From Alphaproteobacteria bacterium (GTDB lineage: Bacteria > Pseudomonadota > Alphaproteobacteria > UBA7887), in NCBI GenBank assembly GCA_965216755.1, contig CBDCGL010000011.1, positions 1,298,609 to 1,362,608 of the forward strand: a stretch of 64,000 bases of DNA, read 5' to 3'. Position numbers and translations under genes: made by a program. Of this stretch, positions 27,651 to 45,590 are shown piece by piece. Within the stretch, counting starts at the first letter, position 1; the number at the start of each line of letters is the position of its first letter. The notes beneath the pieces were generated by a model. It was not told the DNA's origin, searched no databases, and saw nothing but the letters and a program-made list of their open reading frames with translations.

Positions 27651-28634
27651 ATGATGGCGCAGGTCGAAAATATTCAGCATCCGGGTTTGATCGGTACCCA
27701 ACCGCAGGCGCCTGAGCAGGCGATCCGACGCAAACAGATTCGGCGAGAAACTGGCTTCCCAACCGGCTGGCTTATTGCGCCTGCAACGCTGTGGCTTATC
27801 ATTTTTTTGGTCATTCCCTTAGTCAGTATTATCGTCTTCAGTTTCTGGACCAGTACGGGCCACGGCATGGTACCGGAACTGACTCTTCAGCATTACTACG
27901 ATTTCTTCGTTGCCGAGGGGTTCTTCGATCCGGAAGCACGACAATTTCTTACACCATCCGTTTTCATTCGCACCCTGTGGGAGACCTTCCGGTTTACAGC
28001 CGAAGTGATGATCTTATGTCTGATTGTTGGCTATCCAATTGCATACTTTTTATCTATGCAGGTGCAGTCCTTTAAATGGCAAATGGCGTTGTTTTTGCTC
28101 GCCATGGTGCCGTTTTGGACAAGCTATCTGATCCGCGCGGTTGCATGGCTACCCATGCTGGGACGGCGCGGATTGCTCAACCAAGCTCTGGTCAATATCG
28201 GCATTCTCGATAAGCCGGCCACGTTCCTGCTCTATTCGGAATTCGGCTACACCATGGCGCTGGTGCAGCTCTATGTCGTGTTGTCCGTTGGACCGATTTT
28301 CTTTTCACTGGCGAAGATCGACAAGAGCATACTGGAAGCCGCGCGCGATATGGGCGCGACGCCATTTCAGATCTTTCGTGAAATTATCGGGCCGCTGTCG
28401 CTGCCGGGTGTCGCAATCGGCATGATATTCATTTTTGTCATGTTGATGGGTGAGTTTGCCACGGCTGTGGTCGTCTATGGCGGCAAGACATCGACCACTG
28501 GCACGGTGATCCTCAACTATTATGCCATTGCCAACTATCCGTTTGCCGCAGTCAATGCCCTGATGCTGATGCTGGCGATGATGATGGGCGTGGTCATTAT
28601 CCTGAAACTGGTCAATATTCGAAAAGAACTCTAA
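27651..28634 (+). CDS. ABC transporter permease (PotB-like)
   Basis: 327 aa, 6-TM. EAA-like motif region LEAARDMGATPFQIFREIIGP. Confidence 0.85.
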   Translation: MMAQVENIQHPGLIGTQPQAPEQAIRRKQIRRETGFPTGWLIAPATLWLIIFLVIPLVSIIVFSFWTSTGHGMVPELTLQHYYDFFVAEGFFDPEARQFLTPSVFIRTLWETFRFTAEVMILCLIVGYPIAYFLSMQVQSFKWQMALFLLAMVPFWTSYLIRAVAWLPMLGRRGLLNQALVNIGILDKPATFLLYSEFGYTMALVQLYVVLSVGPIFFSLAKIDKSILEAARDMGATPFQIFREIIGPLSLPGVAIGMIFIFVMLMGEFATAVVVYGGKTSTTGTVILNYYAIANYPFAAVNALMLMLAMMMGVVIILKLVNIRKEL

Positions 28635-28644
28635 GGCGCGGACC

Positions 28645-29472
28645 ATGGCGAGATGGACGGCGGAACGGCGGCGCAAATTGGCGGTGAAGACGGGCTTCAG
28701 CGCTTATTACGTAATTTTTCTGTTGTTCATCTATGGCCCGATGATCGCCATGTTCATCTTGTCATTCCAAGGTGAACGTGGTGGCACCAGCTTCCCGATG
28801 CGTGGTACCAGTTTCCATTGGTGGCGCAAATTGATCGAGCCATCTACTGTCGGTGATCTACAAGGCGCGATGGGACGATCCTTGATATTGGCGTTGATCG
28901 TCATGGTGATCACCGCCCTGTTTGCTACCATGTTGGCGATGGCGTTTCGTAAGCGTTTCATCGGTTCGGGCGCGTTGTTTTATACGGTCCTCGCCGGTCT
29001 GATGATGCCGGGAATCCTGCTGAGCCTGGGCATGGCAACCTTCCTGAAACAGATCGGCATTCAGCCAGCCTGGTGGTCTTCGGGTCTGGGCGTGCATGTC
29101 GTCTGGACCCTGCCCTTTGGATTCTTGGTGATGATGGCGGTGTTCAATCGCTTTGATGCGACCCTCGAAGAAGCCGCGCGCGACATGGGTGCCGACGAGT
29201 GGACCGTGTTTAAGGAGATTACGCTGCCCTTGGTAACGCCTGGTATCGTCGCGGCAGGCTTGTTTGGTTTTACGCTATCTTACGACGAGTTTGCCCGCAC
29301 AACGCTGTTGGCGGGTGAGTTCAACACCCTGCCACTCGATATCAATGCTTCGATGACACAACGAATCCGACCGACTCTTTTTGCCCTCGGCACAGCTTCG
29401 ACCTTGTTCTCGTTGGGAATGATCGGCCTATTCCTGATGGTCTATACGATACTCTACCGCCGATCTCACTAA
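28645..29472 (+). CDS. ABC transporter permease (PotC-like)
   Basis: 275 aa. EEAARDMGADEWTVFKEITLPL binding-protein-dependent transport motif. Confidence 0.85.
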   Translation: MARWTAERRRKLAVKTGFSAYYVIFLLFIYGPMIAMFILSFQGERGGTSFPMRGTSFHWWRKLIEPSTVGDLQGAMGRSLILALIVMVITALFATMLAMAFRKRFIGSGALFYTVLAGLMMPGILLSLGMATFLKQIGIQPAWWSSGLGVHVVWTLPFGFLVMMAVFNRFDATLEEAARDMGADEWTVFKEITLPLVTPGIVAAGLFGFTLSYDEFARTTLLAGEFNTLPLDINASMTQRIRPTLFALGTASTLFSLGMIGLFLMVYTILYRRSH

Positions 29473-29489: not shown

Positions 29490-30578
29490 TCATATCTGTT
29501 CCAGCAACGCCGCCGATTCCACCGACCAACAGATGGTCTCGACCTCGCCCAGGTCATAAACGCGGTCTGAGACGTTGCGGTGCTGTTCCACATGTACATA
29601 GTGGTTTGGCGCCACTTCGAATACGTCGGTTTCGAGCGACCCCTTGAATTCCGTTGTCACGAATCGACCGGTGACGCTGTTCGCCATATCGCGCTGGGTG
29701 CCGGTGTGCATCAAATCCGCGCGAACCGAAAAATGCGCCCGATCGCCGATCGGCACATGGCGCACATCGGGCGGAACAGTGACATAGTACAGATGTTCCC
29801 CTGACTCGACAAAGACGACGCTGCCGCTGCGGGATCGAATGATCCCTTCGAAGAGATTGTTATTGCCAATGAACTCGGCGACGAACTTGGTGCGTGGCCG
29901 TTCATAGATTTCTCGCGAGGTGCCGGTCTGTTGGATCCTGGCATCACTCATGACTATGACTTTGTCAGCCATTGACATGGCTTCTTCCTGGGAATGCGTG
30001 ACCATGATGAAAGTCATATTGAGCTCGCGTTGAATGCGCTTGAGCTCGTAAATCATGGTATGCCGAAGGTTATAGTCCAGCGCCCCTAGCGGTTCGTCGA
30101 GCAAAAGGACCGTGGGCCGGCTAATGAGCGCGCGCGCAAGTGCGACACGTTGTTGTTGACCACCGCTCAAGTCATGTGGGCGACGGGTCGCCAACGGATC
30201 CAAACCAACCATTTCCAACATGTCCCAAACTGGCTTGGCGCGCTCGTCCTTTGATTGCCCCTGCATTTTGAGACTGAACTCGACGTTCTGAAAAACCGTG
30301 CGGTGCGGAAATAAGGCAAAGCTTTGAAACATCATCGAGGTATCGCGGTGCGACGGCGGCAAATCCGTAACATCCTGACCTGATATGATAATTCGGCCGG
30401 CAGTGACTTCTTCTAGGCCACCGATCATGCGCAAGGTCGTCGTTTTTCCGCAGCCCGACGGTCCCAGCATGGCGACAAACTCGCCATGCGCGATCTCGGC
30501 ATTGAAATCAATGACCGCCCTAACGTGGCCATCAAACGTCTTGTCGACGCCCTCTAGAATGACATCGTAGTCGGCCAT
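29490..30578 (-). CDS. ABC transporter ATP-binding protein (PotA-like)
   Basis: Walker A GPSGCGKTT, signature LSGGQQQRVALARAL, Walker B LLLDEP. C-terminal TOBE-like domain. Confidence 0.9.
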   Translation of the reverse strand: MADYDVILEGVDKTFDGHVRAVIDFNAEIAHGEFVAMLGPSGCGKTTTLRMIGGLEEVTAGRIIISGQDVTDLPPSHRDTSMMFQSFALFPHRTVFQNVEFSLKMQGQSKDERAKPVWDMLEMVGLDPLATRRPHDLSGGQQQRVALARALISRPTVLLLDEPLGALDYNLRHTMIYELKRIQRELNMTFIMVTHSQEEAMSMADKVIVMSDARIQQTGTSREIYERPRTKFVAEFIGNNNLFEGIIRSRSGSVVFVESGEHLYYVTVPPDVRHVPIGDRAHFSVRADLMHTGTQRDMANSVTGRFVTTEFKGSLETDVFEVAPNHYVHVEQHRNVSDRVYDLGEVETICWSVESAALLEQI

Positions 30579-30587: not shown

Positions 30588-33413
30588 TTATTGACGCAAC
30601 CTTGCCAGTGTTTGGATCAACTCCCAAACGCGCTCGAAAGTCACGTCTTCAAAGCCGCCTTGGCGTTCGAGATCGCGTAACAATCCAACCGCGCGAACCT
30701 GCGCTTGGTTGTCGCCGGCCTCGGCCTCAAGCGCACTGAGCGCCTGGGCAAACGGCACATCGCGCGCTTCCGAAGTTGCCAACGCCCTGCCAACCAGCAC
30801 GTCAAGGTTCTCAAACGCTTGGCGTAGAGAGTTCGGGTCGTGCGGCTGGCCGAGCAGTCCGCGAATACCATTTGCGGTGAATCTATCTCGCAACCCATCC
30901 GGCAATGACTGGCCGAACCCCTCCAAGGCCTCGCCCAGACCGAAGCCCGACGTGAACAAGCCGCGGATCGTGTCGATCGTACCACCTGAACCATTCTCAC
31001 CGCCGAACATACGGATCTGCGCCCCACTCAGCGCCGAGCCCATGGCCTTCGCTTGATCAATATGCACATCGCGTTCGGCCTCGATGAACATCTTGGCCAG
31101 TTCGAGGAAGGTCGCGGCTTCGTTGTACTTCTTGAGCGCGCTCGCTTTGGCATCAAGGCCAGCGGCTTCGGCCTCAAGCATGCGCTGCGTGTTTTCAACA
31201 CGTAGCGTTTCGATTTCCATCTCGGCGCGGCCCTTGGCGCCCGCTTCACGTTCCATGCCTTCGGCGGCAATTTTCTGGGCGTCACTGTTTGCACGTGCGC
31301 GCATAAGTGTCGCCGCCGCCTCGCGTTCGGCCGCATCTTTGCGCGCATCGGATTGCGTAACCATGTGCATGCGCGTGATTTCGGCCTTCGATTCCTCCTC
31401 AATGCGCCGCGCCGCGGCTTCCTTTTCGGCCGCAAGTCGTTCGACCTCTTTGGCACGCTTGGCGTCTGCAACGACCCGAACGGAATCGACATTGTGTTCC
31501 GCTTGCTCTTTCGCGGCGGTCGTCTCCAGACGCGTAACCTCCACGGCCTCAAGCTCCTGCGTCTTCTGCACAAGCGCGATTTCGCGTTGTCGCTCCTCTA
31601 ACTCGCGCGCCAGGAAACGCTGAATGTCCACTTTCTCGCGCTCTTGTTCTTTTTGGATGATCGCGATTTCGCGCTCGCGTTCCTCAAGCTCCACGGTCTT
31701 GGCTTGGCGCACCTCTGCCCGCCGCAGCTCTTCGTCCTTCGCCACCAAGGCAATCGCGCGATCGCGTTCTTCCTGTTCACGGGCAAGCGCGCGGCGGACT
31801 TCGACCCGTTCCAGCTCCTCCGTCTTGGCAACCAGCGCGATTTCGCGGTCGCGTTCCTCCTGCTCACGTGCCAGCGCACGGCGCACCTCGGCTGCTTCGC
31901 GCACCTTCATTTCCTCGGCCACGGAGGCCTTTTTTTGGATTCGCGCGCGTTCAACCGCCAGTTCTTTCTCGATTTCCGTTTCCTGAACCTGCCAACGTTG
32001 ATCCAAAATAAAGCGTTGCTTCTCTGCCAATATTCGCGCGCGTTCATCAGAGATTTCGCGCTCATGCTGAGCCGTCGCCAAGGCATCGTCCTTTTCGACG
32101 TTCAACGCGATTAGGCGGGTTTCCAAGCCGCGTTTGCGCATGGCAATCGCCGCCTCTTCTGTCGCCTTATGGCGTTCGTCGCGAGCGATCTCCTCTGCCG
32201 ACATGACGGCTGTGACCCGTTGGATATCTGCTTGCTGCCGCTCCTGCTCCTTGGCGGTCAGCTCGATCTGGCGCTCCTTTTCGGCCCTTTCGCGTGACAA
32301 GGCGCGGCCGATTTCAGCGAGTTCTTCCTGTTCCGACTTGGTAATCAACTCAATCTCGCGATCCTTCTCTGCCTTTTCCAGAGCGAGACGACGCTCGATA
32401 TCGGCAAGCTCTTCTTCCTTCGCCTTAGCAATCAACGCAATTTCCTTCTCGCGCCTCTCAGCTTCTAATGCGAGATCCTTCCGAATTTCAGATGCTTCTC
32501 GTTTCTGCGCCTCCTCTGTAATTGCGATCTCGCGGCCGGTGCGCAGCTGCTCTAGTTCCTTGTCGTTCTCGATCTCGCGCTGTTCAACCGCCATACGCTG
32601 ATCAAGGACGTAGATCTGCTTTTCGCCGAGCCGCAAAGCTTGTTCGTTTGAGACGTCCTTATCTTGAGACGCGCGCGCAAATGCCTCCTGGCGTTCGATT
32701 TCCAAGAGCTCGAGCTGGGTATCCAAGTCCTTCTGGCGAATTGCAACCGTGGTCCGCTTTTCGGTTTCGTGCACTTTCTTGCGGGCGTCCGACGTGATTG
32801 CCGTAATGATCTTCAAACCTTCTGCGTCAAAGACATTGTCGGTCTTGAAATGGTCTTTGCCGGTCTGTTCCAAAGTCACGATCGTCACCTCTTCCAGCGA
32901 CAGACCGTTGGCTTGGAAACTGGAAATCACGCTTTCCTTGACAGCTTGGGCGAAGGATTCTCGGTTCTCGTGCAATTCGTTCAGGGTCTTGGTGGCGGCG
33001 TAGCTACGAACGGCGCTGACCACTTTTGCCTCAAGCAAATTCCGAACTTTGTCGGGGTCGAACGTCTTGTCGCCCAGGCTTCGGCTGGCAGTCAAAACGT
33101 CGTCGACCGTGCGGCCGACATGCGCATAGAGTTCGGCGACAATATCAATGCGGATTTTGTCCGACGTGAGGACGGCTTGGTCGCGCGCACGACTGACGAT
33201 CAGCTTGATCGTTTCCAGCGATACCCAGGTTACGTCATGAAAAACAGGAAGAACGACCGCGCCCTGCCCAATGCACACTTTTGTTCCCAGAAATCCCGTT
33301 CGAATGAAGGCGAGGTTCGCTGGCGCGCGCTTGTAGACCCATATCGACAACACATAGACAATCGCTATGACAACGATGATTGACAGTATTATTGTTAGCC
33401 AGAGTTCAAGCAT
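30588..33413 (-). CDS. flotillin-like SPFH/band-7 domain protein with very long repetitive coiled-coil
   Basis: 941 aa. N-terminal TM plus SPFH domain (YqiK/flotillin-like). Central region of E/R/A/K-rich heptad repeats with near-identical copies (ALAREQEERDREIALVAKTEELERVEVRR ...). Confidence 0.75.
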   Translation of the reverse strand: MLELWLTIILSIIVVIAIVYVLSIWVYKRAPANLAFIRTGFLGTKVCIGQGAVVLPVFHDVTWVSLETIKLIVSRARDQAVLTSDKIRIDIVAELYAHVGRTVDDVLTASRSLGDKTFDPDKVRNLLEAKVVSAVRSYAATKTLNELHENRESFAQAVKESVISSFQANGLSLEEVTIVTLEQTGKDHFKTDNVFDAEGLKIITAITSDARKKVHETEKRTTVAIRQKDLDTQLELLEIERQEAFARASQDKDVSNEQALRLGEKQIYVLDQRMAVEQREIENDKELEQLRTGREIAITEEAQKREASEIRKDLALEAERREKEIALIAKAKEEELADIERRLALEKAEKDREIELITKSEQEELAEIGRALSRERAEKERQIELTAKEQERQQADIQRVTAVMSAEEIARDERHKATEEAAIAMRKRGLETRLIALNVEKDDALATAQHEREISDERARILAEKQRFILDQRWQVQETEIEKELAVERARIQKKASVAEEMKVREAAEVRRALAREQEERDREIALVAKTEELERVEVRRALAREQEERDRAIALVAKDEELRRAEVRQAKTVELEEREREIAIIQKEQEREKVDIQRFLARELEERQREIALVQKTQELEAVEVTRLETTAAKEQAEHNVDSVRVVADAKRAKEVERLAAEKEAAARRIEEESKAEITRMHMVTQSDARKDAAEREAAATLMRARANSDAQKIAAEGMEREAGAKGRAEMEIETLRVENTQRMLEAEAAGLDAKASALKKYNEAATFLELAKMFIEAERDVHIDQAKAMGSALSGAQIRMFGGENGSGGTIDTIRGLFTSGFGLGEALEGFGQSLPDGLRDRFTANGIRGLLGQPHDPNSLRQAFENLDVLVGRALATSEARDVPFAQALSALEAEAGDNQAQVRAVGLLRDLERQGGFEDVTFERVWELIQTLARLRQ

Positions 33414-33513: not shown

Positions 33514-35796
33514 TCAGGCACGGCGCGCGCCACCCGGGCGTTCGCCGAAATCAAACAACGACGACTCCCCGCGACCGTGGCGCATGCCATCGCGCAATGT
33601 CTCGGTTGCCTGGCGGTCAACTTCAACACCCTCGCCGTCCAATACCACACCATAATCTTGCCGTGCCGCTTCGATACTCACAAGCTTTCGTGCAACATCA
33701 TTGCGCACCGCGACGGGATCGCGATCCAAAGGGTCGCCCCAGCCGCCACCCCCGGCGGTGCGAAAAATGACGCGATCCCCGTGGGCGACTTCCACATTGT
33801 CGATTTTCGAAGGTAGTGGCTCCCGCGTGCCGTCGGCTCTTATCAGCCACTTCTCCGAACACTGACCAGGCCTGCCGCCCAAAATGCCCCACGGTTGTGT
33901 CAGGTGCCGATCGTCATGAACGGAAATGTGGCCCGGCTCCATAAGCTGGTAAACCTTGTCCACGCCATTGCCACCGCGATGCTTGCCGGCGCCGCCAGTG
34001 TCGACGATCGTGCCATAGCTTTCGATCATCATCGGGTAGTAGCTCTCGAGATATTCGGTCGGGATGTTCTCGAACAACGGCCACCAGGAATGACCGTCCA
34101 TGCCATCGCCGACCGGGCGCCCGGGAATGCCACCGTAAAGAATTTCCATGAGCTGAAACGGTTCGCCGCGGGCATCAACACCGGAGTAAAGGAAATGCGG
34201 GCTGGAGCCGTATCCCGCCGCCGTCGCCAATTCCGGCGCGTTCTTGCTAAGCGCTCCACCCAACACATCAAACTGACGCGACAAGGCGTGCGTTCGGCAA
34301 CCGAGCGCGGCCGGAAAGTCTGGTTGCACCAGCGAACCATGCGGCAAGGTCACATGAATCAGGTCATAAAAGCCATCGTTGAACAAGATCTGGGGATCAA
34401 ACACCATGATCATGTAGACCCCGATGAACATCTTGAACATGCCTTCATGCAGGTAGAAGTTGATCGGCCCCGGCGCCTGCGTGGCTGTGCCGGTCCAATC
34501 GAAATAGCCATGTTCCCCTTCTCGCCAAACGGTCAATTTCATTTTGAAGGGACCGTTGCCGCAACCGTCGTCGTCAACAAAATCCTCGAATGACTGCGGT
34601 TCCTCGGGCAGGTTTTGCACGATCAACGTGCGCATGGCTTTGTTGGTGCGCTCCAGCAGCGCATCGCACGCGCTCTTGTACGTCTCCACACCAAAGCGCT
34701 GACAGATTTCGATAACCCGTCGCTCCCCAGCGCGGCTGCCCGCGATGATCGCCATCAGGTCGCTGTAGTTCATTTCGGGCGTGCGCGTGTTGTTCATCAA
34801 AAGATCGAGCGCCGCCTTATTCAGCACGCCGCGTTCATAAATCTTGATGGGCGGAATGCGGATGCCCTCACCGAAAATCGACGTTGCCGCGGTTGGCATG
34901 CTGCCGGGCACCCAACCGCCGACATCCATCATGTGCCCGAACATCGAACTGAATCCGACCAACTCGCCTTCAAAAAAGATCGGTACGAGTACCATCCAGT
35001 CGTTGATGTGACTGATCGCGCCGCCGCACTTGTAGGGATCACTCTGCAGAAGCACGTCGCCCGGATCAAAGGCAACGCCGTGGGTTTCGAGCATCTCCGG
35101 GACATATGAACCAAACTGCCCAACGATCATCCGACCCTTGCGATCGGTGATCATCGGAAACTCATCATGCTGCTCGCGGATGACTGGCGACATCGCCGAA
35201 CGAAACAACACAGCGTCCATTTCGTGACGCGCATTGCGCAATGCGTTTTCGATCAGGTCCAGCGTGATCGTATCCAGGCTTGTCGCCCCGCCTGGCGTGC
35301 GGTCGATGTCCGCCGATTTGTCTTCGGACTTCTCGACAACGGGCGCCGGCGCCGACCCCGTTGGCTTGGCTTCCACTTGGCCATTGCCGGGAAACATCGC
35401 CGCGCATTTGAGTAGCGCATCATCGGTCGCGCGCTGCAACGCCGCGCCTTCGTCGCCAGCGATTCGCGCACTGCCGAATTGCATTTTGCTGGCGCCGTCC
35501 ACCAGCAATTTGCACAGGACGGTCACGCGACCGCGCTCAATTTTGTGCTCAACGATCTCTGATGACCATGCATCACCAAACTGCTGGTTCAGCAATGCGA
35601 CCGCATCCGAAACGGCACCGGTTTCAAGCTGCAAGCTCGCCGACGCCAGATCTTCTTTTGTCGCAGGACGGTGTTCGACGCCAACAACGCCCAGCTCTTT
35701 AGATTGAACAGCCGCAATCGCGTCGAACTGGGCTTTGCTTGCCTTCAGCAAGTCATCCAGCGACAGTAACTTTGGCGGCGGTTCGGGTTCGCTCAT
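33514..35796 (-). CDS. hydantoinase B/oxoprolinase-family protein with about 180-aa N-terminal extension
   Basis: 760 aa. C-terminal roughly 580 aa is a typical HyuB/N-methylhydantoinase B domain. N-terminal extension is homologous to standalone ORF 42332..42820. Confidence 0.8.
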   Translation of the reverse strand: MSEPEPPPKLLSLDDLLKASKAQFDAIAAVQSKELGVVGVEHRPATKEDLASASLQLETGAVSDAVALLNQQFGDAWSSEIVEHKIERGRVTVLCKLLVDGASKMQFGSARIAGDEGAALQRATDDALLKCAAMFPGNGQVEAKPTGSAPAPVVEKSEDKSADIDRTPGGATSLDTITLDLIENALRNARHEMDAVLFRSAMSPVIREQHDEFPMITDRKGRMIVGQFGSYVPEMLETHGVAFDPGDVLLQSDPYKCGGAISHINDWMVLVPIFFEGELVGFSSMFGHMMDVGGWVPGSMPTAATSIFGEGIRIPPIKIYERGVLNKAALDLLMNNTRTPEMNYSDLMAIIAGSRAGERRVIEICQRFGVETYKSACDALLERTNKAMRTLIVQNLPEEPQSFEDFVDDDGCGNGPFKMKLTVWREGEHGYFDWTGTATQAPGPINFYLHEGMFKMFIGVYMIMVFDPQILFNDGFYDLIHVTLPHGSLVQPDFPAALGCRTHALSRQFDVLGGALSKNAPELATAAGYGSSPHFLYSGVDARGEPFQLMEILYGGIPGRPVGDGMDGHSWWPLFENIPTEYLESYYPMMIESYGTIVDTGGAGKHRGGNGVDKVYQLMEPGHISVHDDRHLTQPWGILGGRPGQCSEKWLIRADGTREPLPSKIDNVEVAHGDRVIFRTAGGGGWGDPLDRDPVAVRNDVARKLVSIEAARQDYGVVLDGEGVEVDRQATETLRDGMRHGRGESSLFDFGERPGGARRA

Positions 35797-35831
35797 CAGC
35801 CTTGCATCCTCGCCTTCAGTCCTCGTCGATC

Positions 35832-37889
35832 TCAGTTTTCGGCATTTGCAGGATTGATCAAGAAGTTGAGATGCGTATCGACGCGACCAACATAGCCTGG
35901 ATGAACAACAGTCGTCGTGTCCGTCTGCATAATAATGGCCGGACCCACGACCCGATTGCCGGCGACCAAACGGCTCCGATCATAGATTTCCGCGTCAATG
36001 AAGGCACCGTCGAAATAAACCTGGTGCTGTTCGACGACAGCCGCCGCCGCATCCGCGCTGCCAAGTGCGAAGTCTGGCGCGCGTGGACGTGGCACAGCGC
36101 CACTGCCCACCGCACGCAAGTTCACCAGCTCCACTGGTTGGTCGAGCCGAAATCCATACAATTTCTCGTGCGCCGCGCCGAAACGATCCGCGATATCAGC
36201 CAACCCGCCAGCAGCTAGGCTATCCGGCGCGGCGTCCAGGGTGAATTCATAGCCTTGTCGCAGATAACGGACATCGACCTCGTAACGCACGTTCTGTTCT
36301 GTTTCATCAACGCCGTCGTCATGCAGCCAAGCACGGGCTTGGCGCCCCAATTCCATGAAGTGCACTTGTAGTTGGTCGCCATCGACGTCATCGATGTTTC
36401 GAATGAAAGTCCGGGCAAACTCGTTTTTGACGTCGGACGACAGAAAGCCCAGCGCCGATAGCACGCCCGGCGTTGGCGGCACCACGACCGGAAAGCATCC
36501 CGCCAAGGCCGCCAACGCATTGCCGTGCATGGGTCCGGCGCCGCCAAACGCAACCAAGGCGAAATCCCGTGGGTCGAGGCCCTTTTGCACAGTCAGCAGT
36601 CGCAAGGCGCCAAACATGTTCTCGTTAACGATGTCCAAAATGCCTTGTGCCGCCTGACAGGCATCCAAACCGAGCGTACGGCCGACTTTTTCCATGGCGT
36701 CTTCGGCGGCCTTGATGTCCAGCTGCATCTCGCCGCCGAGCAAGCTGGGTGGCAGTCGCCCCAACACGACGTTCGCGTCGGTGACGGTCGGATTGTCCCC
36801 CCCATTGCTATAGCAAGCCGGACCGGGCATCGCTCCGGCGCTTTCAGGCCCAACCCGCAGAGCCCCGGTCAGCGGAACGTGGGCGATCGAGCCACCGCCG
36901 GCACCGACACTATGCACTTCGACCGACGGAATCTTTATTGGGTAATAGCCAAGTGAGGTTTGGCGCGAAATAACGGGCTTGCCATCACGGATCATCGACA
37001 CGTCGGTCGACGTGCCCCCCATGTCGAATCCAAGGGCATCCGGAAACCCGGCCGATGAGGCGACGTACGCTGCCCCCGAAACGCCACCAGCCGGACCGGA
37101 GAGCATGGTGTGGACTGGTGACTCCGTCGCCCGGGCGACGCTCATCAGCCCGCCGTCCGAACGGATGATACTGACGTGAGGCGCGAAATCGATCGCGCGC
37201 AGCTTCTCTTCGAAATTGCGTAAATAGGCACGCATTGCCGGCCGCACATAGGCGTTCATCACAGCGACCAGCGTCCGCTCATACTCTCGAAACTCCGGCA
37301 GGATATCCGAGGATAGAGAAACAGGAAAATCTACGCCCATATCCCGGATGATTTCACGTATGCGTCGCTCGTGGATCGGATTGGCATAGGCGTGCAGCAA
37401 AGCCACCGTGATGGATTCGACGCCAAGGGCCGATAGATCCTGAACAGCGGATTGGACGCGCGCCTCGTTCAAAGGTGTCACAACGTCGCCGTGAGCGTTA
37501 ACGCGTTCCGGTACGCCGCGCGTGGCTTCCAGATCGGCAAGCGGGTCAGGTTTGACCATAATCATCCACCCGGCCAGCGGACCCGGCGTCTGCGACCGTG
37601 CCATGTGGAGAACTTGCTCAAAATTCTCGGTGACAATCAGGCCGACCTTGGCGCCTTTTTCTTCCAGCACGATGTTTGTGGAAACCGTCGTACCATGCAG
37701 AAGACTTAGTATTGTGTCCGGCGCGACACCTGAATCCGCCACGATTCGTTCGATGCCCTTGAGAATTCCGACCGATTGGTCTTCTGGCGTGGACGGTGTC
37801 TTCAGAAGGTGGATATCGCCAGTCGCGTCATTAAACAGCAGCAGGTCGGTGAAAGTCCCACCAACGTCGATTCCGAGTCGGGTGGCCAT
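35832..37889 (-). CDS. hydantoinase A/oxoprolinase-family protein
   Basis: 685 aa. Start MATRLGIDVGGTFTDLLLF, the ASKHA-fold HyuA signature. Confidence 0.9.
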   Translation of the reverse strand: MATRLGIDVGGTFTDLLLFNDATGDIHLLKTPSTPEDQSVGILKGIERIVADSGVAPDTILSLLHGTTVSTNIVLEEKGAKVGLIVTENFEQVLHMARSQTPGPLAGWMIMVKPDPLADLEATRGVPERVNAHGDVVTPLNEARVQSAVQDLSALGVESITVALLHAYANPIHERRIREIIRDMGVDFPVSLSSDILPEFREYERTLVAVMNAYVRPAMRAYLRNFEEKLRAIDFAPHVSIIRSDGGLMSVARATESPVHTMLSGPAGGVSGAAYVASSAGFPDALGFDMGGTSTDVSMIRDGKPVISRQTSLGYYPIKIPSVEVHSVGAGGGSIAHVPLTGALRVGPESAGAMPGPACYSNGGDNPTVTDANVVLGRLPPSLLGGEMQLDIKAAEDAMEKVGRTLGLDACQAAQGILDIVNENMFGALRLLTVQKGLDPRDFALVAFGGAGPMHGNALAALAGCFPVVVPPTPGVLSALGFLSSDVKNEFARTFIRNIDDVDGDQLQVHFMELGRQARAWLHDDGVDETEQNVRYEVDVRYLRQGYEFTLDAAPDSLAAGGLADIADRFGAAHEKLYGFRLDQPVELVNLRAVGSGAVPRPRAPDFALGSADAAAAVVEQHQVYFDGAFIDAEIYDRSRLVAGNRVVGPAIIMQTDTTTVVHPGYVGRVDTHLNFLINPANAEN

Positions 37890-38107
37890 GCGCGAATCCC
37901 TGTTTGCCGTCTCCAGCGTCCACCGTCAACTCCCCAGATCCGTCGATAGGCGCCATCAGAACCCGCTCCAAGGTCATAGGTTCCGGAGGTCGATGCGCGA
38001 ATGATTCCCGACATGTACGACTCGGTCAACCCGCTTCGGCGCCATAGACGTCACCGAAACGATCGTGTAGCGTTTCGCCCAGCAAAATCTCGGACCAACG
38101 GTCAGCT

Positions 38108-38635
38108 ATGGCGCAGGAATCGACACATAGTCCATCGCGACGCTTTTGGGTGTTCCTTGTTGGCCTGATTGTCGCTCTTATTTTCCTGTATTTTTACGAA
38201 CCGTTCGAAAATTTCGTGGTCACCGGAATCGGCAATATCCGATCTGACAATATTATTTTCTGGTTTGCATCTTTGGTTGGTGTGGTCGGATATGCCATTG
38301 CCCACTGGCAAACCTTCCAGCAAAAGATATTTCGACGCGGGGCAGAGCTGGATGCCGATGCTTTGGTCTTCGACACCCTTCAGATCTCGATTCTGATCGC
38401 GGTAATATTTTGTGCCGGCGCGACATTGCAGGCGATCGGAATTCTCAGCGAACATTTGATCACCCGTGGCAGCATCATTGATGGCGTGTTTGGCGGCCGC
38501 CTACTGACCATCATTCTATTGGTATTCTTGGCAATCGGATTTTACTTGTTGCACCATGTGGTGCGTGCGTTCCGCTCTGGTTGGCGGCCAAAACGGCCAC
38601 CTGGTCGTGGAGATTCGCCGGCCCACCGAGGCTAA
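38108..38635 (+). CDS. small 4-TM membrane protein (paralogue of 24136..24615)
   Basis: 175 aa. FLYFYEPF...NIIFWFASLVGVVGYAIAHWQTF. Same architecture and motifs as 24136..24615. Confidence 0.55.
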   Translation: MAQESTHSPSRRFWVFLVGLIVALIFLYFYEPFENFVVTGIGNIRSDNIIFWFASLVGVVGYAIAHWQTFQQKIFRRGAELDADALVFDTLQISILIAVIFCAGATLQAIGILSEHLITRGSIIDGVFGGRLLTIILLVFLAIGFYLLHHVVRAFRSGWRPKRPPGRGDSPAHRG

Positions 38636-38645
38636 CGAGGACTTC

Positions 38646-39689
38646 TTAGACGGCGATCGACTGCTGCTGGAGCCGCGACGGGTCGGCCGGATTCGACAGC
38701 GCGTTGAAAGCCGCGAGAGACTCCTTGAGCCGCGCGGGCGCCAAGTTCCGCACAATGAAAATCAGGCGCGACCGCCGATCCTCGTCTGGCCAGGCGCTCA
38801 AATGTGTCGGCGGATGGACAATATGCTGGACCCCATTGATGACCACCGGGTCCGCCATGCCGGCCACATTCAAGAGCCCCTTGATCCGCAACACACGGTC
38901 GCCATGACGATTGAGCAACATCGTCATCCATATGCCGAAGGCGGTCCAATCAAGCGGCTGATCGAACATCAGGCAGAACGAATTCACGCCATCTGTATGT
39001 TGGTGGTTCCGATCCGGCGTCGCTTGGCGCCATTGGGCGACAGCTTGCGTGTGGCGGTCTTGGGCATAAAGGTCGTTTGTCACGAGTGCGATCGCGTCGA
39101 AACTCGACGCGGCGGCATCACTTACGGTTGCGCCAGGATTTCGCCGTTTCAGCTCTGCAATAAGCGAACGAATGCGATCTTCGGCGCACAAATCGGTTTT
39201 GGTCAACACCAACCCATCTGCGACCAACAATTGCTTTTCAGACTCGGGAAAAGTCGCCAACTGGCTTTCGCCATTGACTGCGTCGATAACCGTGATGACG
39301 TTGCCGAGCCGGAAGTGGTGCTGGATCACCTGATCCGACAGCAAGGTATAGGCAATGGGTACTGGATCGGCGAGCCCCGAAGTTTCAATGATAACACGAG
39401 AAAACGACGGAATATCGCCACGGGTCTGCTGCGACAGTAGGTCTCGAAGGGCCCCCTTTAGATCTTCGCGTACCGCGCAGCACACACACCCATTGTCGAG
39501 TAGCAACGTGTTTTCGGTGGCGTGCCCGATCAGATGGTGATCGAGTCCGACTTCGCCAAATTCATTCACCAAGACAGCGGTTTGCTTGAGTTGTGGCGCC
39601 TCGAGGATGCGCCGCAGCAGGGTCGTTTTGCCGCTGCCCAGAAAGCCAGTGACGACGTTGATCGGAATGAGGGTACCGTAGTCCGCCAT
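38646..39689 (-). CDS. CobW/COG0523-family GTPase (putative metallochaperone)
   Basis: P-loop GFLGSGKTTLLRRIL and a CxCC-like metal motif (GCVCCAVRED). C-terminal CobW domain. Start placed at MADYGT. Confidence 0.8.
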   Translation of the reverse strand: MADYGTLIPINVVTGFLGSGKTTLLRRILEAPQLKQTAVLVNEFGEVGLDHHLIGHATENTLLLDNGCVCCAVREDLKGALRDLLSQQTRGDIPSFSRVIIETSGLADPVPIAYTLLSDQVIQHHFRLGNVITVIDAVNGESQLATFPESEKQLLVADGLVLTKTDLCAEDRIRSLIAELKRRNPGATVSDAAASSFDAIALVTNDLYAQDRHTQAVAQWRQATPDRNHQHTDGVNSFCLMFDQPLDWTAFGIWMTMLLNRHGDRVLRIKGLLNVAGMADPVVINGVQHIVHPPTHLSAWPDEDRRSRLIFIVRNLAPARLKESLAAFNALSNPADPSRLQQQSIAV

Positions 39690-40069
39690 GGCTATAGCCC
39701 TTTCAGACAATAGGGAGCCGTTCTGCCGGAGCTGTTTTGTGCCAATATCAAGTTGCTGTCCGCAAGGCGTATCCGGCATACGGCCAAGGATAGCGGCGCA
39801 GGGATTGACGCAAAATCGCCCGGCCCCGCAGGTTTGTGGCCGGCGGGCGGCCACTTTGTCGCATGGCTTGCTCGATGCGCTCGTGCGGTGAATCGGACGA
39901 GATCCAAATATTCGGCTCGTGTCCTGACGAAACCGAAGTTCGTAAGGTGCCTGGGATCAGACGTGACGAACTTCGGATTCGGGACACGAGCATTGTGCTG
40001 CGCCGCCCTTCGTGTGGACAACCGCGCCGGATCGCAAACAGTATCGACTCCATATCGTCCGAAATGGCG

Positions 40070-40387
40070 CTAGCGTGCCAGGGTGGCAAGCAATGTGTCG
40101 TCCAATGGATCGCAATCACGACCAATCAACGACTCGGCCGCGGCCCATAGCGCCGTCATATTGTCAACAATCGCCGTTCGACCCGTGCGTGAACGCAATA
40201 TATAGCTCGCGCCGGCAAAATCGCTGACCGTGAGTCCATAATAGCGCAGCACGTGATTTGCCAGGCGTAAGCGCTGTTGGCGCTCTTGTCGTCGCGTGTG
40301 ACCGCGCTGGTGGCGAAAGGCTTTTGGGTGACTGCTCGTTTCGGTCCAATGTCCAGGTCCGCCGAGCACACCACATAGACCGCACAT
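40070..40387 (-). CDS. small hypothetical protein
   Basis: 105-aa ORF starting 10 nt after the deacetylase stop on the same strand. Codon usage looks coding. No family recognised. Confidence 0.3.
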   Translation of the reverse strand: MCGLCGVLGGPGHWTETSSHPKAFRHQRGHTRRQERQQRLRLANHVLRYYGLTVSDFAGASYILRSRTGRTAIVDNMTALWAAAESLIGRDCDPLDDTLLATLAR

Positions 40388-40396
40388 TAACCGGAC

Positions 40397-41473
40397 CTAT
40401 CCTGCCGCCACGTTCGCGCGCGCGGGTTGGCGCGGATGGCGGCGCGCAAAGTCGTCGGCAATCTCATCGAATGTTGTGAACCGAACGCCCGCGTGACTGG
40501 TGAAATATTCAACAAGACGTTCGAGCATCAAAAGCACTTGCGGCCTTCCGGAAACATCCGGATGGATTGTCATCGTGAATACGGCATAGTCGTATTCACG
40601 ATAAACCCAATCGAATTGATCGCGCCACAAATCCTCAATATCGCGGGGATTGACAAAACCGAAACTATTCGGCGCGGCCTTTATGAACATCATAGGCGGC
40701 AAGTCATCCAAATACCAACTACCCGGGATGTCGATCAGGTCGGTTTCTGCCCCGCGCACCAAAGGCTTCATCCATTCGTCAGGATGTTTGGAATAATCGA
40801 TCGGCGTCCAGCTATCGCCGACGCGGACATAAAACGGATGGAAGTCCCTGTTCATCAAGCTGTGGTCATATTTGATGCCCCGCTTGAGCAGCAGTTCGTT
40901 GGTGACCGGGCTGAACTCCCACCACGGCGCCACATAGCCGGTCGGGCGCCGGCCACTCAAGCGCTCGATCAGGTCGATGCATTTGTCCATGACGGCCTCT
41001 TCCTGTTCCGGCGTCATGGCAATCGGATTTTCGTGGGAATAGCCGTGCATGCCGATTTCGTGGCCAGCTTCGACGACCATGCGGCACTCGTCGGGGAATG
41101 TCTCTATCGAATGGCCGGGAATGAACCACGAGGTCGGAATACCCAACTTGTCGAACAAGCGTACCAATCGCGGCACGCCAACTTCGCCGGCAAACAAACC
41201 GCGCGAGATATCACATGGTGAATCCTCGCCACCGTAGGAGCCGAGCCAGCCCGCGACGGCATCAACATCGACACCGAACGCACAGAAGATCTCCTTCTTG
41301 CCGCCGCCGCCGGCCTTCGCCAGGTGCCGCGAGCCAATGTTAGCCGTGCTGGTGCTCGGTGTAATGAGCGGTCGTGGTCGATAACGTTCCGCACTCGCGC
41401 GGCCGCCGGAACTTCGCAACGCTTTGTTATGATCGCTGCCTGGTCGTTGATTCATCACACGCCTCCCGCTCAC
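40397..41473 (-). CDS. polysaccharide deacetylase-family protein (PuuE-like)
   Basis: NodB-homology domain motifs ([17 protein letters not shown]). True start may be a few codons downstream of 41473. Confidence 0.8.
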
Positions 41474-41606
41474 GACCGATCGTCTCAGCCGCCGCTATCT
41501 TGCGTCGGTTGCGCTTTGTGGGGCAAGAGCCGTTTCATCAAGACCGCACACCCGTTGCCGGACAATGGCACACGGGGTATCGTTTTGCGTCAACACGCGG
41601 AGAAAG

Positions 41607-42320
41607 ATGGCCATGGGCGAGACACATCACGAAACGTTTGAGGACTATCAGCGAAAGGGCTTGGGAAGTCGTTCTGGCTTTGGCGAGAAACCGGCGTTCG
41701 TGGTCGTCGATTTTAGCAATGGTTTTACTGATCCAACCAGCCCGCTGGGCGGCGACTTCAGCAAGGAGCTAGCCGTAACGGCGGCGTTACTCGACGGTTT
41801 TCGTCGCCGTGGCTTGCCAATTGTATTTACAACGGTTGCCTACGAGCCGCATTTCCGCGATGCCGGAGTCTTCATCAAGAAAGTCCCGTCGCTGTCGATC
41901 CTGCTCAAGGGCTCGCAAATGGTCGCGATCGATGACCGTATCCGGCCGCGCCCGGATGAGATGGTGCTGGAAAAGAAGTTCGCGAGCGCGTTTTTTGGTA
42001 CCGAATTGGACCGCCATTTGCGCTCTTTGGCTGTAGATACGGTCGTGATCGCCGGCGCCACGACCAGCGGTTGCGTTCGCGCCAGCGCCGTCGACTCGAT
42101 GCAGCATGGATTCCAGACGATTGTGGTCCGCGATGCGGTCGGCGACCGCGCGCAAGGTCCCCATGAGGCGAACTTGTTTGATATCGACGCCAAATATGGA
42201 GACGTCGTCTCCGGTCAGCAGGTTCTGACATATCTGGAAGAGCTCGGTCGTGCTGGCGGGATGGCAAGTAAGGCAGCCGATGCCTTTGACCGCTGGTGGA
42301 ATCGCGGCGCAGTCGCCTGA
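41607..42320 (+). CDS. isochorismatase-family cysteine hydrolase (N-carbamoylsarcosine amidase-like)
   Basis: GGAGAAAG RBS then ATG 41607. PAFVVVDFSNGF...VVIAGATTSGCVRASAVD catalytic-Cys motif. Confidence 0.8.
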   Translation: MAMGETHHETFEDYQRKGLGSRSGFGEKPAFVVVDFSNGFTDPTSPLGGDFSKELAVTAALLDGFRRRGLPIVFTTVAYEPHFRDAGVFIKKVPSLSILLKGSQMVAIDDRIRPRPDEMVLEKKFASAFFGTELDRHLRSLAVDTVVIAGATTSGCVRASAVDSMQHGFQTIVVRDAVGDRAQGPHEANLFDIDAKYGDVVSGQQVLTYLEELGRAGGMASKAADAFDRWWNRGAVA

Positions 42321-42331
42321 CGGACGTCACG

Positions 42332-42820
42332 ATGACCGACGAACGCCGCGGCGCGTACAGTTCACCGCTTGACGACATGCTGGTCCAGGCGCGCCAGCAA
42401 TTTGACAGTTTGCTCGATGCGGAGGCGGCGGTCGAGGCGCCGCCCTCGCAGTCAGCCGAAGCGCTGGGCGCACCCGCCCGAATGACGCGACCGGATCTGG
42501 CACCATTGCCCGGCGCCGAAGATGCGATCCGCATGTTGCAACAGAAACATGTCAACAATTGGCGATATAATGTTGTCGAACGCCGCCATGATGGATCAAG
42601 TGTCACGGTTCTGGTCGAATTGTTCGTCGCCGATATGACAGATCCCGTCTCAGCTTACGGCCACGCCCCAGGAAAAAGCAGTAGCGGCATTGTCCGTGGC
42701 ACATCTGACGGCGTGTCATTTTCGATTGCGATGGGCCGGCCATCGCGGGCGACGAACCTGGATGCCGCATACGACCGCGCGATCGCGGATGCCCTGACCA
42801 ATTGCGTCGCATTGCTATAG
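42332..42820 (+). CDS. hypothetical protein homologous to the N-terminal extension of the HyuB-like protein
   Basis: Alignable to residues about 10-180 of ORF 33514..35796. Matching blocks: LDD[LM]L..A..QFD, A[VI].[LM]L.Q...W...VE[HR]...G.VTVL..L.V, final A..DAL..C.A[LM]. Confidence 0.55.
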   Translation: MTDERRGAYSSPLDDMLVQARQQFDSLLDAEAAVEAPPSQSAEALGAPARMTRPDLAPLPGAEDAIRMLQQKHVNNWRYNVVERRHDGSSVTVLVELFVADMTDPVSAYGHAPGKSSSGIVRGTSDGVSFSIAMGRPSRATNLDAAYDRAIADALTNCVALL

Positions 42821-42872: not shown

Positions 42873-44633
42873 TCATGCAAGTGGTCCAGGGTTTTTTAGG
42901 TACTTGTTTTTGATTGCGTCGGCGGTCCAGTAAGCCAACGCGCCCACCTGACCAGTCGGATTGAAACACGAAAGTTGTGGAAAAGCGCTGGCGCCCACCA
43001 CAAACAGGTTGTCGACATCCCAACTCTGAAGATACCGATTGACGGCACTATTGTCTGGTGCGTCGCCAGCGATCGCCCCGCCGACTTGGTGGATCATGAA
43101 GTAATACTGGCCCTGATCAAAACGCTGCGGCAGCCCCCACAACGCATAGTGGCTCGGATTCATTGCCTTAGCAACTTCTTCGCCCTTGCCGACCATGTAA
43201 CGGCTCAGTTTGTGTTCGTTGGGTCCAAAGTCGTAGGTCAGCCGCAACAGCGGATTGCCCCATGCGTCGTTGTAGTTGGGATCAAGATCCATGTAGTTGC
43301 CGCGATAGGACAAATGATCATGCAGGCCGACCACAAGGAAGCTGCGGTTGTAGTAGTGGGCTACGGCTTTTTTCCAATCCGATCCCCACGCCGGCGTGCC
43401 TGGTGGAGCCGGTTGGAAGGCCAGTGGACCATGACCACCCATCCAGGCCACCATCAGGCTTCCTCCGATGAAATCAAGGCCGCTGTGGTCGAAGTTGTCG
43501 CCCTGCAAATCAGCGACGGCCGTATCGAGAGCCCCCGTCGCCATGTACGGATTGAAGTGATGTCCATCGTCGAAATAGGCCTGAATTCCTGGCGTTACCC
43601 AATGCCATGAGAAATTCTTACCGACCGCGCCCTTGCCTGTGGCTGGATCGTATGGCGCGCCGATGCCGGAGACCAACATCAGCTGGACATTGCTCCAAGT
43701 GAACGCCGTGAGAAGCACAATGTCGGCGGGTTGCTCGATTTCACGACCCAGACCGTCAATATATGTGACGCCGGTTGCCTTGTTGCCATTCGTGTTAATT
43801 CGGGTTACCGCTGCATTCGTCCGCACTTCGAAGTTTCCGGTATCAAACGCGGCTGGTAACGTGCAGGTCTGCGGTGTCGACTTTGCGGCCGTTTCACACG
43901 CATAATTCATGCAATAGCCGCAATAGACGCATTCACCCAAGCTCACCCCATCCGGATTGGTGTAAGGCTGACTGCACTGCGCTGCGGGCATGGGAAACGG
44001 GTGGTAGCCAAGACTTTTGGTGGCTTCCGCATAGACGTTGCCGGCGTGGCTCCGCTTCAATGGCGGATTCGGATAGTCGCGCGAACGCGGTCCCTCAAAG
44101 GGGTTGCCACCGGCTTGGACGTTGCCTTGAACATTTCCGGCCTTGCCCGATATGCCGCACGTATATTCAAACTGATCGTAATAAGGCTCCATTTCCTCGT
44201 AAGTCATGGGCCAGTCTTGGATCGTGCAGTCTTCGGGAATCATGCGTGCGCCATAGCGTTCGATTGTTTGGCTCCGGATATTGAAATCCCACGGGGTTAG
44301 GCGCCATGTCCACCCGGCCCAATGAAACCCCGCCCCGCCCACGCCAGACCCCCATGGCCAGGGACCGTGGCGTCGCTGCGGACGCGCGACTTCGCCCGTC
44401 GAATTACGAAACGTATGGGTCGTTTTTGACAGATCCTCGAACATTTCGAGGCGCCGTTCATACTTGAGTTGATCATGCATGGAAGGAAGACTGTAGTCCT
44501 CCTGCCGCCGCTCGCCACCACGCTCGAGGCCAACAACCTTGAGGCCTGCTTTGGCGAGCTCAAGTGCCATAATGCTTCCCGACCAACCGACACCGATCGT
44601 CACAACGTCGACCGGTTTCATTTTGATCGCCAT
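42873..44633 (-). CDS. GMC-family FAD oxidoreductase (gluconate 2-dehydrogenase flavoprotein subunit-like)
   Basis: 586 aa. N-terminal FAD motif VDVVTIGVGWSGSIMALELAKAG and the GMC C-terminal region. Confidence 0.85.
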   Translation of the reverse strand: MAIKMKPVDVVTIGVGWSGSIMALELAKAGLKVVGLERGGERRQEDYSLPSMHDQLKYERRLEMFEDLSKTTHTFRNSTGEVARPQRRHGPWPWGSGVGGAGFHWAGWTWRLTPWDFNIRSQTIERYGARMIPEDCTIQDWPMTYEEMEPYYDQFEYTCGISGKAGNVQGNVQAGGNPFEGPRSRDYPNPPLKRSHAGNVYAEATKSLGYHPFPMPAAQCSQPYTNPDGVSLGECVYCGYCMNYACETAAKSTPQTCTLPAAFDTGNFEVRTNAAVTRINTNGNKATGVTYIDGLGREIEQPADIVLLTAFTWSNVQLMLVSGIGAPYDPATGKGAVGKNFSWHWVTPGIQAYFDDGHHFNPYMATGALDTAVADLQGDNFDHSGLDFIGGSLMVAWMGGHGPLAFQPAPPGTPAWGSDWKKAVAHYYNRSFLVVGLHDHLSYRGNYMDLDPNYNDAWGNPLLRLTYDFGPNEHKLSRYMVGKGEEVAKAMNPSHYALWGLPQRFDQGQYYFMIHQVGGAIAGDAPDNSAVNRYLQSWDVDNLFVVGASAFPQLSCFNPTGQVGALAYWTADAIKNKYLKNPGPLA

Positions 44634-44747: not shown

Positions 44748-45590
44748 CTACATGAAACCCACAAAATGGTTCGCGTTCCAATCCATCGCGACGTCTTCCG
44801 ATTCCGTACGTTTCTTGGGCGCCTCTGTCTTACGCGGTGCTTCGGCACGTTTGTGATGGGGATGACCATGATGGTCCTTCGGCACACGTGCCTGACGCAC
44901 ATCTTCCATGCTCACGGGCTCCACGTCGTACGGTTCGTTCTGGCCGATCACTTCGCTGTAAGACGCGGCGACGCCCGGATAGCCAACCAGTTTCCACCCG
45001 ATCATATCGCGATTGCCGCCATAGGCGGGATCGGCAAAAAACCCATCCTTTGTGTCGGTGATCAAGTGAGCAAAGAAAGTTGCACCCGGCACCTCTTCCA
45101 GCGACACGTCACCGGATACACCCTGCAATCCGCTCAGAACGTCTTCCTGCTGAGCCGCTTCGAGCTGGCTAAAGAACTTGCCATAGCTTTCCTGGCAGTA
45201 CTGATCCGTGGCAGCGATGCCAACTTGGTAGAGCTGCCGAGGTGACAGGGGTAGCTGATAGCCTTGGTACCCGGTTGTGTCGCCGAACGGGCCTTGCTGA
45301 TAAAATCGCGCACCGGCGCCATAGTCACCAGCCAACTGCTGATCGATAAAGTACGAGACGTCCGCCTCCAAAGCGCCGGGCCCGAGATCATCGGCCGGGA
45401 TTAGGCGAGCGACCGCCGCTTCAATGAAGGCGGCTTCTGCGTCGGTAAAAAATGTATACGTCTTGTCCATCGTACCTAGATCGGCACGATGAACGCGCGC
45501 CTCTGTGTGTGGCGCCGAGGCGACAACGTCCGACGCGGCCACGGATGCGACCGTGCCCGCGAGTATCTGTAGGAACCTTCGCCGGTCCAT
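44748..45590 (-). CDS. gluconate 2-dehydrogenase subunit 3-family protein, Tat signal
   Basis: MDRRRFLQILAGTVASVAASDVVASA twin-arginine signal. Upstream partner of the GMC flavoprotein, as in membrane-associated flavoprotein dehydrogenases. Confidence 0.7.
   Translation of the reverse strand: MDRRRFLQILAGTVASVAASDVVASAPHTEARVHRADLGTMDKTYTFFTDAEAAFIEAAVARLIPADDLGPGALEADVSYFIDQQLAGDYGAGARFYQQGPFGDTTGYQGYQLPLSPRQLYQVGIAATDQYCQESYGKFFSQLEAAQQEDVLSGLQGVSGDVSLEEVPGATFFAHLITDTKDGFFADPAYGGNRDMIGWKLVGYPGVAASYSEVIGQNEPYDVEPVSMEDVRQARVPKDHHGHPHHKRAEAPRKTEAPKKRTESEDVAMDWNANHFVGFM

Follow-up and report, generated by a model that had tools for sequence, protein, structure and literature searches.

The stretch of DNA under study, 64,000 nucleotides from contig CBDCGL010000011.1 of an alphaproteobacterial genome (assembly GCA_965216755.1) and referred to below as the window, carries a gene (33514..35796) for a HyuB-like protein with an N-terminal extension of unusual ancestry, and a paralogue of this extension is encoded as a free gene (42332..42820) in the same cluster. 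The module present in both proteins is best classed as a derived, truncated offshoot of the Rad52/Rad22 family and not as a single-strand-annealing protein (SSAP). That a recombination fold has been exapted into a metabolic enzyme complex is well supported as far as the identity of the module is concerned, and its function we infer: we give a probability of about 60% to the view that this stripped-down Rad52-type core is a protein-protein module for the assembly or docking of an ATP-dependent HyuA/HyuB cyclic-amide hydrolase rather than a DNA annealer. To our knowledge, no role other than DNA annealing and recombination mediation has so far been described for Rad52-family domains, and our full-text literature searches found no report linking Rad52 with hydantoinase or oxoprolinase.

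Relationship of the module to Rad52/Rad22 proteins

The 760-residue fused protein is a full-length member of the Hydantoinase_B family PF02538 (489.9 bits versus a gathering cut-off of 26.8 bits), and its approximately 174 N-terminal residues are left without any Pfam or NCBIfam assignment. This extension had been noticed in the original prediction, a reading of the DNA sequence made without database searches, which had also proposed that it recurs as the free open reading frame (ORF). Both points hold: residues 13-135 of the fused protein share 28% identity with the free ORF (BLASTP E 1e-9, query residues 1-189), and the pairwise alignment runs through exactly the three matching blocks that had been named. 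When the profiles of the two families are compared, the relationship extends over 136 columns and includes the N-terminal helix (hhalign probability 99.9%, E 1e-32). Residues 1 to about 140 of the fused HyuB and the 162-residue free protein are paralogues.

Searched by word index, the free ORF retrieved nothing besides itself, and a full HMMER search of the library was needed to find homologues. The profile of the fused module retrieved 474 proteins at E <= 1e-3 from a library of 1.84 billion representative proteins. Outside of the fused and free families, these matches include bacterial proteins of about 180-250 residues at E 1e-13 to 1e-8, and most of those that were scanned (26 of 32) match the Pfam family PF04098 (Rad52_Rad22) at E <= 0.01; between 22 and 25 of the same 32 proteins match Erf-like/SSAP families of PHROG. 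Four of them (P0131, P0165, P0167 and P0174), when scanned singly, reach 45-66 bits on PF04098, whose cut-off is 20.3 bits. Alignment of the fused family with the bacterial SSAP set gives an hhalign probability of 99.7% (E 4e-25, 39% identity over 80 columns), that of the free family one of 99.2% (E 1.9e-19), and the window domain finds P0167 by BLASTP at E 1e-14. The bacterial proteins that provide this bridge to Rad52 are genuine recombination proteins, as evidenced by the nuclease context of one of them (locus L068, described below), by the PHROG matches, and by the match of human RAD52 (hRAD52) to the bacterial SSAP set at E 1e-7. The numbering of the hRAD52 sequence used for this comparison agrees with the published residue numbers. 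The same sequence aligned to the fused-domain profile in the same register and without significance (E 0.096), and the link to Rad52 is therefore a transitive one that runs through the bacterial SSAPs.

Direct searches do not reach this far. Neither the 760-residue protein, nor its isolated N-terminal domain, nor the free ORF matches PF04098 even at E 10; Pfam (again up to E 10) and NCBIfam as a whole yielded no match for the module in either copy; and phmmer and profile searches of the PDB returned nothing significant, with designed repeat proteins and the ribosomal protein uS5 as the best entries (E 0.01-1). The tentative resemblance to Rad52/Sak proteins that had been seen by eye is consequently upheld as homology through the linking proteins; it applies only to the core of the fold, and the direct match to PF04098 is missing. 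At this level, homology of both copies to Rad52_Rad22 proteins is shown.

Structure prediction leads to the same family. In the AlphaFold2 (AF2) model of the fused module, which was built from an alignment of 42 sequences, residues 62-135 are predicted with a local confidence score (pLDDT) above 90 and form the elements H64-73, E77-87, E90-99, E102-111 and H116-134; ahead of this core lies a moderately confident helix (residues 13-34) and then a disordered stretch. An independent AF2 model of the free ORF, based on 34 sequences, shows the same core plus two extra strands, and its N-terminal helix is likewise followed by a poorly ordered region. When used as a Foldseek query, the fused model retrieves human RAD52 among its top five matches (E 4e-5 to 2e-4), and Rad52, Mgm101 and yeast Rad52 are the top structural matches for both independent models. 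Hence, the fold comparison that had been suggested as a check places the Rad52 family on top for both copies and not a different fold. The beta-beta-beta-alpha core of the predicted models superposes on solved Rad52-family structures, and the double-stranded RNA-binding domain (dsRBD) family is not the best structural match and has no significant sequence match to the module. Both the dsRBD and the N-terminal domain of uS5 score below the Rad52 family, and in the PDB profile search uS5 attains only E ~1.

Small alpha-beta-beta-beta-alpha modules of the dsRBD-like type might superpose on Rad52 by chance without being related to it, and the likeness seen here would then be convergent. We consider this very improbable given the strength of the alignments to bona fide PF04098 members reported above (hhalign E 4e-25, BLASTP E 1e-14). 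The window domains have with these proteins not only the alpha-beta-beta-beta-alpha core in common but also the motifs LN..F...WS.E(I/V)VEH, VL.KL..DG, KMQFGS and DAL.KCA..F, and the hRAD52 sequence alignment falls into the same register as the structural match. Convergence of the fold is thereby effectively excluded.

The module comprises only a part of an annealing protein. Its homology to SSAPs begins at about SSAP column 34, past the N-terminal hairpin, and stops ahead of the GIGLHLY segment; the hairpin motif of bacterial SSAPs, PF.P..IK.R.G..G..L.YV, is not present in either copy. We take this hairpin to correspond to the region of hRAD52 that contains R55 and Y65, residues of the groove for single-stranded DNA (ssDNA), and K144, K152 and R153 of hRAD52 to be basic residues of the C-terminal helix that touch ssDNA. 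The positions equivalent to these three residues are basic in all 21 SSAPs inspected. In the fused family, they are occupied by Q/R, by R32/A16/L4/K4 and by K24/G19/R6/A4, respectively (Q121, L129 and K130 in the window copy), and in the free family by R/D/A, mostly M/A/T, and N. Judged by these residues, the DNA-binding determinants of annealing proteins appear to be lost in these domains. Furthermore, an association with recombination partners (exonuclease, single-stranded DNA-binding protein, phage or mobile-element context) was not found at the cluster. The reduction to the core, the missing or degraded hairpin and basic residues, the lack of reach by Pfam and the metabolic neighbours together indicate a Rad52-derived domain that is probably not a working annealing protein.

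What the two paralogues possess in addition is an N-terminal helix with the motif (S/L)(F/L)DD(L/M)L...(K/R)..FD, which the annealing proteins lack; D14, D15, L17 and F24 are its conserved positions in the fused family. The free paralogue is further distinguished from the fused copy by an insertion of about 20 residues, which carries a conserved G.S.GV.F motif in the free-family alignment.

A native fusion and its free counterpart

The original prediction had recommended that other HyuB homologues be inspected for the extension. We scanned one genome per species, which yielded 66 loci, all of them from metagenome-assembled genomes (MAGs) and mostly from Alphaproteobacteria. The N-terminal domain and the catalytic part lie in a single stop-free frame in 59 of these 66 species-level genomes, with products of 747-799 residues. 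Of the seven exceptions, five are frameshifted loci in long-read MAGs, one lies at a contig end, and the last (L068) is a true annealing protein. The linker between the two parts, about 40 residues that are predicted by AF2 to be disordered, differs in sequence and length between genomes, and it is in this GC-rich linker that the frameshifts of the long-read MAGs fall. Even distant HyuB lineages, with a catalytic identity to the window protein of 38-59%, keep the N-terminal domain (31-52% identity), and the two domains diverge in parallel across these lineages.

A different impression might be gained from databases. With the extension as query, a word-index search brought up 56 relatives, the majority of them "standalone" proteins 150-200 residues in length, and in two of the loci, L001 and L002, a small gene is called between hyuA and hyuB (10380..10720 in each). 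Such entries could be read in two ways, namely that the domain is a separate gene in the relatives of the window, or that the fusion in the window is an artefact in which adjacent genes have been merged by an error of sequencing or assembly. The L001 junction reveals that the HyuB frame stays open far upstream, across the called stop; in both L001 and L002, one frameshift in the linker parts the two gene calls, and other genes on these long-read contigs are split as well. Together with the frame check in the 66 genomes, these junctions rule out a separate gene between hyuA and hyuB. An artefact in the window is scarcely credible, as the separate calls stem from frameshifts and truncations, the in-frame fusion is found in many independent assemblies, and the catalytic part possesses no start codon ahead of Met193, which itself lies inside the Pfam domain. 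We regard this alternative as effectively excluded. The fusion, in-frame in 59 of the 66 genomes and with the L001 and L002 splits traced to frameshifts, is the native and conserved architecture of a HyuB clade. Most "standalone" homologues of the extension in databases are pieces of the fused gene left by frameshifts or truncation, a warning that metagenome catalogues list many such frameshift products of this family as "hypothetical small proteins"; the sole genuinely free copy is the second paralogue.

As to the catalytic part, the nearest named family is the caprolactamase beta subunit CapB, whose NCBIfam model aligns with its positions 1-575 to residues 174-735 of the fused protein. Its score of 251.9 bits falls short of the equivalog cut-off of 1000 bits, and the acetophenone carboxylase model ApcD gives 135.9 bits at an equivalog cut-off of 1500 bits. 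Because both scores lie far under these cut-offs, we leave the substrate specificity of the fused HyuB unassigned.

Genes surrounding the fused and the free copy

The features of the cluster are collected in Table 1, and their conservation was assessed in the 47 loci that possess full 10-kb flanks. The deacetylase-family gene, orf105 and the CobW-like GTPase gene are situated upstream of hyuA on its strand, and the genes for the SPFH protein and the ATPase follow downstream of the fused hyuB. The cluster context is strictly metabolic, and no recombination gene was found in it, either in the Pfam annotation of the window or in the 47 fully flanked loci. A dihydropyrimidinase gene is found beside those of an ABC importer, which suggests that cyclic ureides of the hydantoin or dihydropyrimidine type are the compounds handled by the cluster. 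Neither orf105 nor orf175 has a significant Pfam match (best E 0.076).

Table 1. Coordinates of the fused gene, the free paralogue and neighbouring features in the window; locus counts refer to the 47 fully flanked loci.
Feature	Position	Strand	Support and conservation
Dihydropyrimidinase/D-hydantoinase	24642..26126	-	NCBIfam TIGR02033, 606 bits vs 393-bit cut-off
ABC binding protein and two permeases	26303..29472		
ABC transporter ATPase, closing the hyuA-hyuB-SPFH string	29490..30578	-	Pfam ABC_tran; 47/47 loci
Flotillin-like SPFH protein, 941 aa, directly downstream of fused gene	30588..33413	-	Pfam Band_7; 47/47 loci, same position
Fused gene: Rad52-like N-terminal module, flexible linker and Hydantoinase_B (HyuB/CapB-like)	33514..35796	-	760 aa, uninterrupted ORF
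Hydantoinase_B catalytic domain, aa 175-689	33730..35274	-	Pfam PF02538, profile 1-519 of 519
Linker, aa 136-174, low-complexity, P/A/G/E/K-rich	35275..35391	-	pLDDT <50 from aa 139
Rad52-like core of fused copy, aa 62-135, alpha-beta-beta-beta-alpha	35392..35613	-	
N-terminal helix of fused copy, aa 12-34, LDDLLKASKAQFD...	35695..35763	-	AF2 helix H13-34, pLDDT ~73
hyuA, ATP-binding large subunit, 35 bp upstream of fused gene	35832..37889	-	Pfam Hydant_A_N, Hydantoinase_A, Hydant_A_C; 47/47 loci
Multi-transmembrane protein, 175 aa (orf175), divergent from hyuA	38108..38635	+	47/47 loci
CobW/ZigA-like metallochaperone GTPase	38646..39854	-	Pfam cobW, CobW_C; NCBIfam matches under cut-offs; 45/47 loci
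105-aa protein (orf105), start MCGLCGVLGG, between PuuE-like deacetylase and CobW-like GTPase	40070..40387	-	45/47 loci
PuuE-like polysaccharide-deacetylase-family hydrolase	40397..41473	-	Pfam Polysacc_deac_1; best NCBIfam is allantoinase PuuE, under cut-off; 47/47 loci
Isochorismatase-family hydrolase; stop 11 bp ahead of free-paralogue ATG	41565..42320	+	Pfam PF00857, E 4e-35; 40/47 loci
Free paralogue: N-terminal helix, Rad52-like core and extra beta-hairpin	42332..42820	+	162 aa from ATG
Insertion found only in free paralogue (aa 114-135), adding two strands between beta-3 and C-terminal helix	42671..42736	+	AF2 strands E120-125, E128-133
GMC oxidoreductase, beyond free paralogue	42873..44633		
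Gluconate_2-dh3 subunit	44748..45590		

The SPFH protein is composed of an N-terminal transmembrane segment, the Band_7/SPFH domain and about 600 residues of E/R/K-rich coiled-coil repeats (REQEERDREIALVAK...). It is unusual to see an SPFH scaffold so closely tied to a hydrolase of the soluble type.

The arrangement of an accessory domain that is fused once and free once in a single locus, which had been recognized in the window, recurs in related genomes, and the isochorismatase gene adjoins the free paralogue there as well. In 33 of the 47 loci, the free paralogue lies directly upstream of a second pair of hydantoinase-type genes, hyuA2B2 (for example, 2038..5871 in L045), and in none of the loci does hyuA2B2 occur in the absence of the free paralogue. 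HyuB2 has no extension; that of L045 starts about eight residues ahead of the catalytic domain, and characterized members of the family such as CapB, a protein of 580 residues, start with the catalytic domain, too (PMC8453981). This agrees with the initial premise that Hydantoinase B proteins normally begin there. A module that is fused in enzyme 1 and free beside enzyme 2 suggests that one module is provided per enzyme.

Possible roles of the module and comparison with known systems

Assembly or docking could have arisen as follows. A Rad52-type core would have been acquired once from a bacterial or phage SSAP of the Rad52_Rad22 family and would then have been duplicated. It would have retained the alpha-beta-beta-beta-alpha unit, dispensed with the beta-hairpin at the N-terminus and the GIGLHLY segment at the C-terminus, come under weaker constraint at the basic residues of the helix with which Rad52 touches ssDNA, and acquired a new amphipathic helix at its N-terminus. 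One copy would have become tethered to HyuB via the flexible linker of about 40 residues, and the other would be supplied in trans. Rad52 cores are known for self-association, and the module may likewise act by self- or hetero-association, or it may bind HyuA or the SPFH scaffold as putative partners. A more far-reaching proposal, which we regard as tentative and rather doubtful, is that the Rad52 core has been turned into a self-assembling, possibly ring-forming scaffold for cyclic-amide hydrolases with which the free paralogue co-assembles, in a membrane-proximal metabolon together with the SPFH protein and the ABC importer. If true, this would represent a previously unrecognized use of the Rad52 fold that does not involve nucleic acids.

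Rather than in assembly, the domain might take part in the catalytic cycle of HyuAB, either as a lid or gate or in the hand-over of substrate or Zn in conjunction with the CobW-like GTPase. CapB-type subunits bind Zn in their active site (PMC8453981), the CobW/ZigA-like GTPase is conserved in the cluster, and the domain contains a nearly invariant cysteine (C131) and a conserved E-H-K motif, all of which would suit such a role. However, the DNA-annealing relatives share the conserved cysteine and EH motif, which thus look ancestral and structural. The long, disordered linker of variable length moreover speaks against a rigidly placed lid, and the free copy has R/Q where the fused copy has His; we hence deem a catalytic role unlikely. 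Slightly less probable still, in our estimation, is that the domains continue to bind nucleic acid, either as minimal SSAPs or as dsRBD-like RNA or DNA binders, and thereby couple the enzyme, or the expression of its gene, to one of these nucleic acids, for instance by autoregulation at the mRNA level or by localization to the nucleoid. Against this stand the absence of the hairpin that bears the R55 and Y65 equivalents, the variability of the SSAP-invariant basic positions in the fused copy and their mostly non-basic nature in the free copy, the lack of an exonuclease or recombination partner of the kind present in L068, and the metabolic context in 47 of 47 loci.

The view that the module serves in assembly or docking has to contend with several observations that weigh against it. 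The fused copy often retains R or K at the positions equivalent to K152 and R153, and residual binding of nucleic acid by this copy, to judge from these residues, may be possible. Net charge of the core does not tell these domains from SSAPs; we had considered it as an indicator of DNA binding, and it proved uninformative, with SSAP cores being equally neutral or acidic. Furthermore, the pairing of modules and enzymes is incomplete. Six of the 47 loci, among them L003 and L008, which resemble the window, contain the free paralogue with no second pair beside it, and another eight hold the fused copy and neither the free copy nor a second pair within 10 kb. A second HyuAB pair was searched for in the window and not found; the window contains a single hyuAB pair and has the genes for the GMC oxidoreductase and the Gluconate_2-dh3 subunit at the position of hyuA2B2. 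As the free copy persists without enzyme 2 in the window, L003 and L008, the one-module-per-enzyme rule is not a strict one.

Compared with the PF04098 SSAPs (P0131, P0165, P0167, P0174 and the protein encoded at 9611..10528 of L068), the window domains lack the hairpin, the GIGLHLY segment and the C-terminal tail, carry the new N-terminal helix, and have metabolic enzymes, in place of an exonuclease, as their fusion partners or neighbours. The N-terminal domains of eukaryotic Rad52 and Mgm101 (PDB 5jrb, 8tkq, 8g3g and 9yi6) are more remote, with 12-21% identity; their hairpin and cap regions are absent from the window domains, and there is no direct significant sequence match between them. 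With regard to the enzyme, residues 175-689 constitute a full-length member of a family that encompasses HyuB, CapB, oxoprolinase and the alpha subunit of acetone carboxylase, and the HyuA gene adjoins; unlike CapB, the window clade possesses a Rad52-like module and a linker ahead of the catalytic domain. Small additional polypeptides are familiar from this enzyme family: acetone carboxylase is an (alpha-beta-gamma)2 complex and acetophenone carboxylase an (alpha-alpha'-beta-gamma)2 complex plus epsilon, whereas CapAB is (alpha-beta)2 (PMC8453981). The gamma subunit of acetone carboxylase and the gamma and epsilon subunits of acetophenone carboxylase follow the same logic, that of a small extra polypeptide accompanying a HyuA/HyuB-type core, which in the present case is either free or fused. 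Neither Rad52-like copy, however, has a Pfam or NCBIfam match to the acetone carboxylase gamma family, and the fold is a different one.

Collectively, dozens of alphaproteobacterial species possess a conserved Rad52 core that is stripped down yet clearly homologous and that is both joined to a metabolic enzyme and encoded next to it, a clean natural case of a recombination fold having been exapted. The HyuA/HyuB family of hydantoinases, caprolactamases, oxoprolinases and carboxylases thereby gains a new accessory module, and attention is drawn to approximately 140 residues for which the current domain libraries have no annotation. At the same time, the core offers a system for testing which of the properties of Rad52, ring assembly or DNA binding, reside in the minimal core.

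Two of the more distant relatives merit description in their own right. The L068 region (8099..11368), from an anammox MAG, encodes a canonical Rad52_Rad22 annealing protein (57.6 bits) to which a SWIM zinc finger is fused, with a PD-(D/E)XK nuclease directly after it and a TrwB-like coupling protein ahead. Its Rad52 core is 44% identical to the HyuB N-terminal domain, and the whole looks like a recombination module of a mobile element. The 1009-residue protein P0196 contains a hairpin-less Rad52-like core at residues ~60-135 (E 5e-9 to the profile). Ahead of this core lies a hydrophobic N-terminal segment resembling a signal peptide, and CBM9 and DUF5916 domains are fused to it. The Rad52 fold may here have been put, independently and for a second time, to a use that does not involve DNA, or the protein may be a chimera of gene calling; the occurrence of this core in an apparently secreted protein hints that exaptation of the Rad52 core may be more general.

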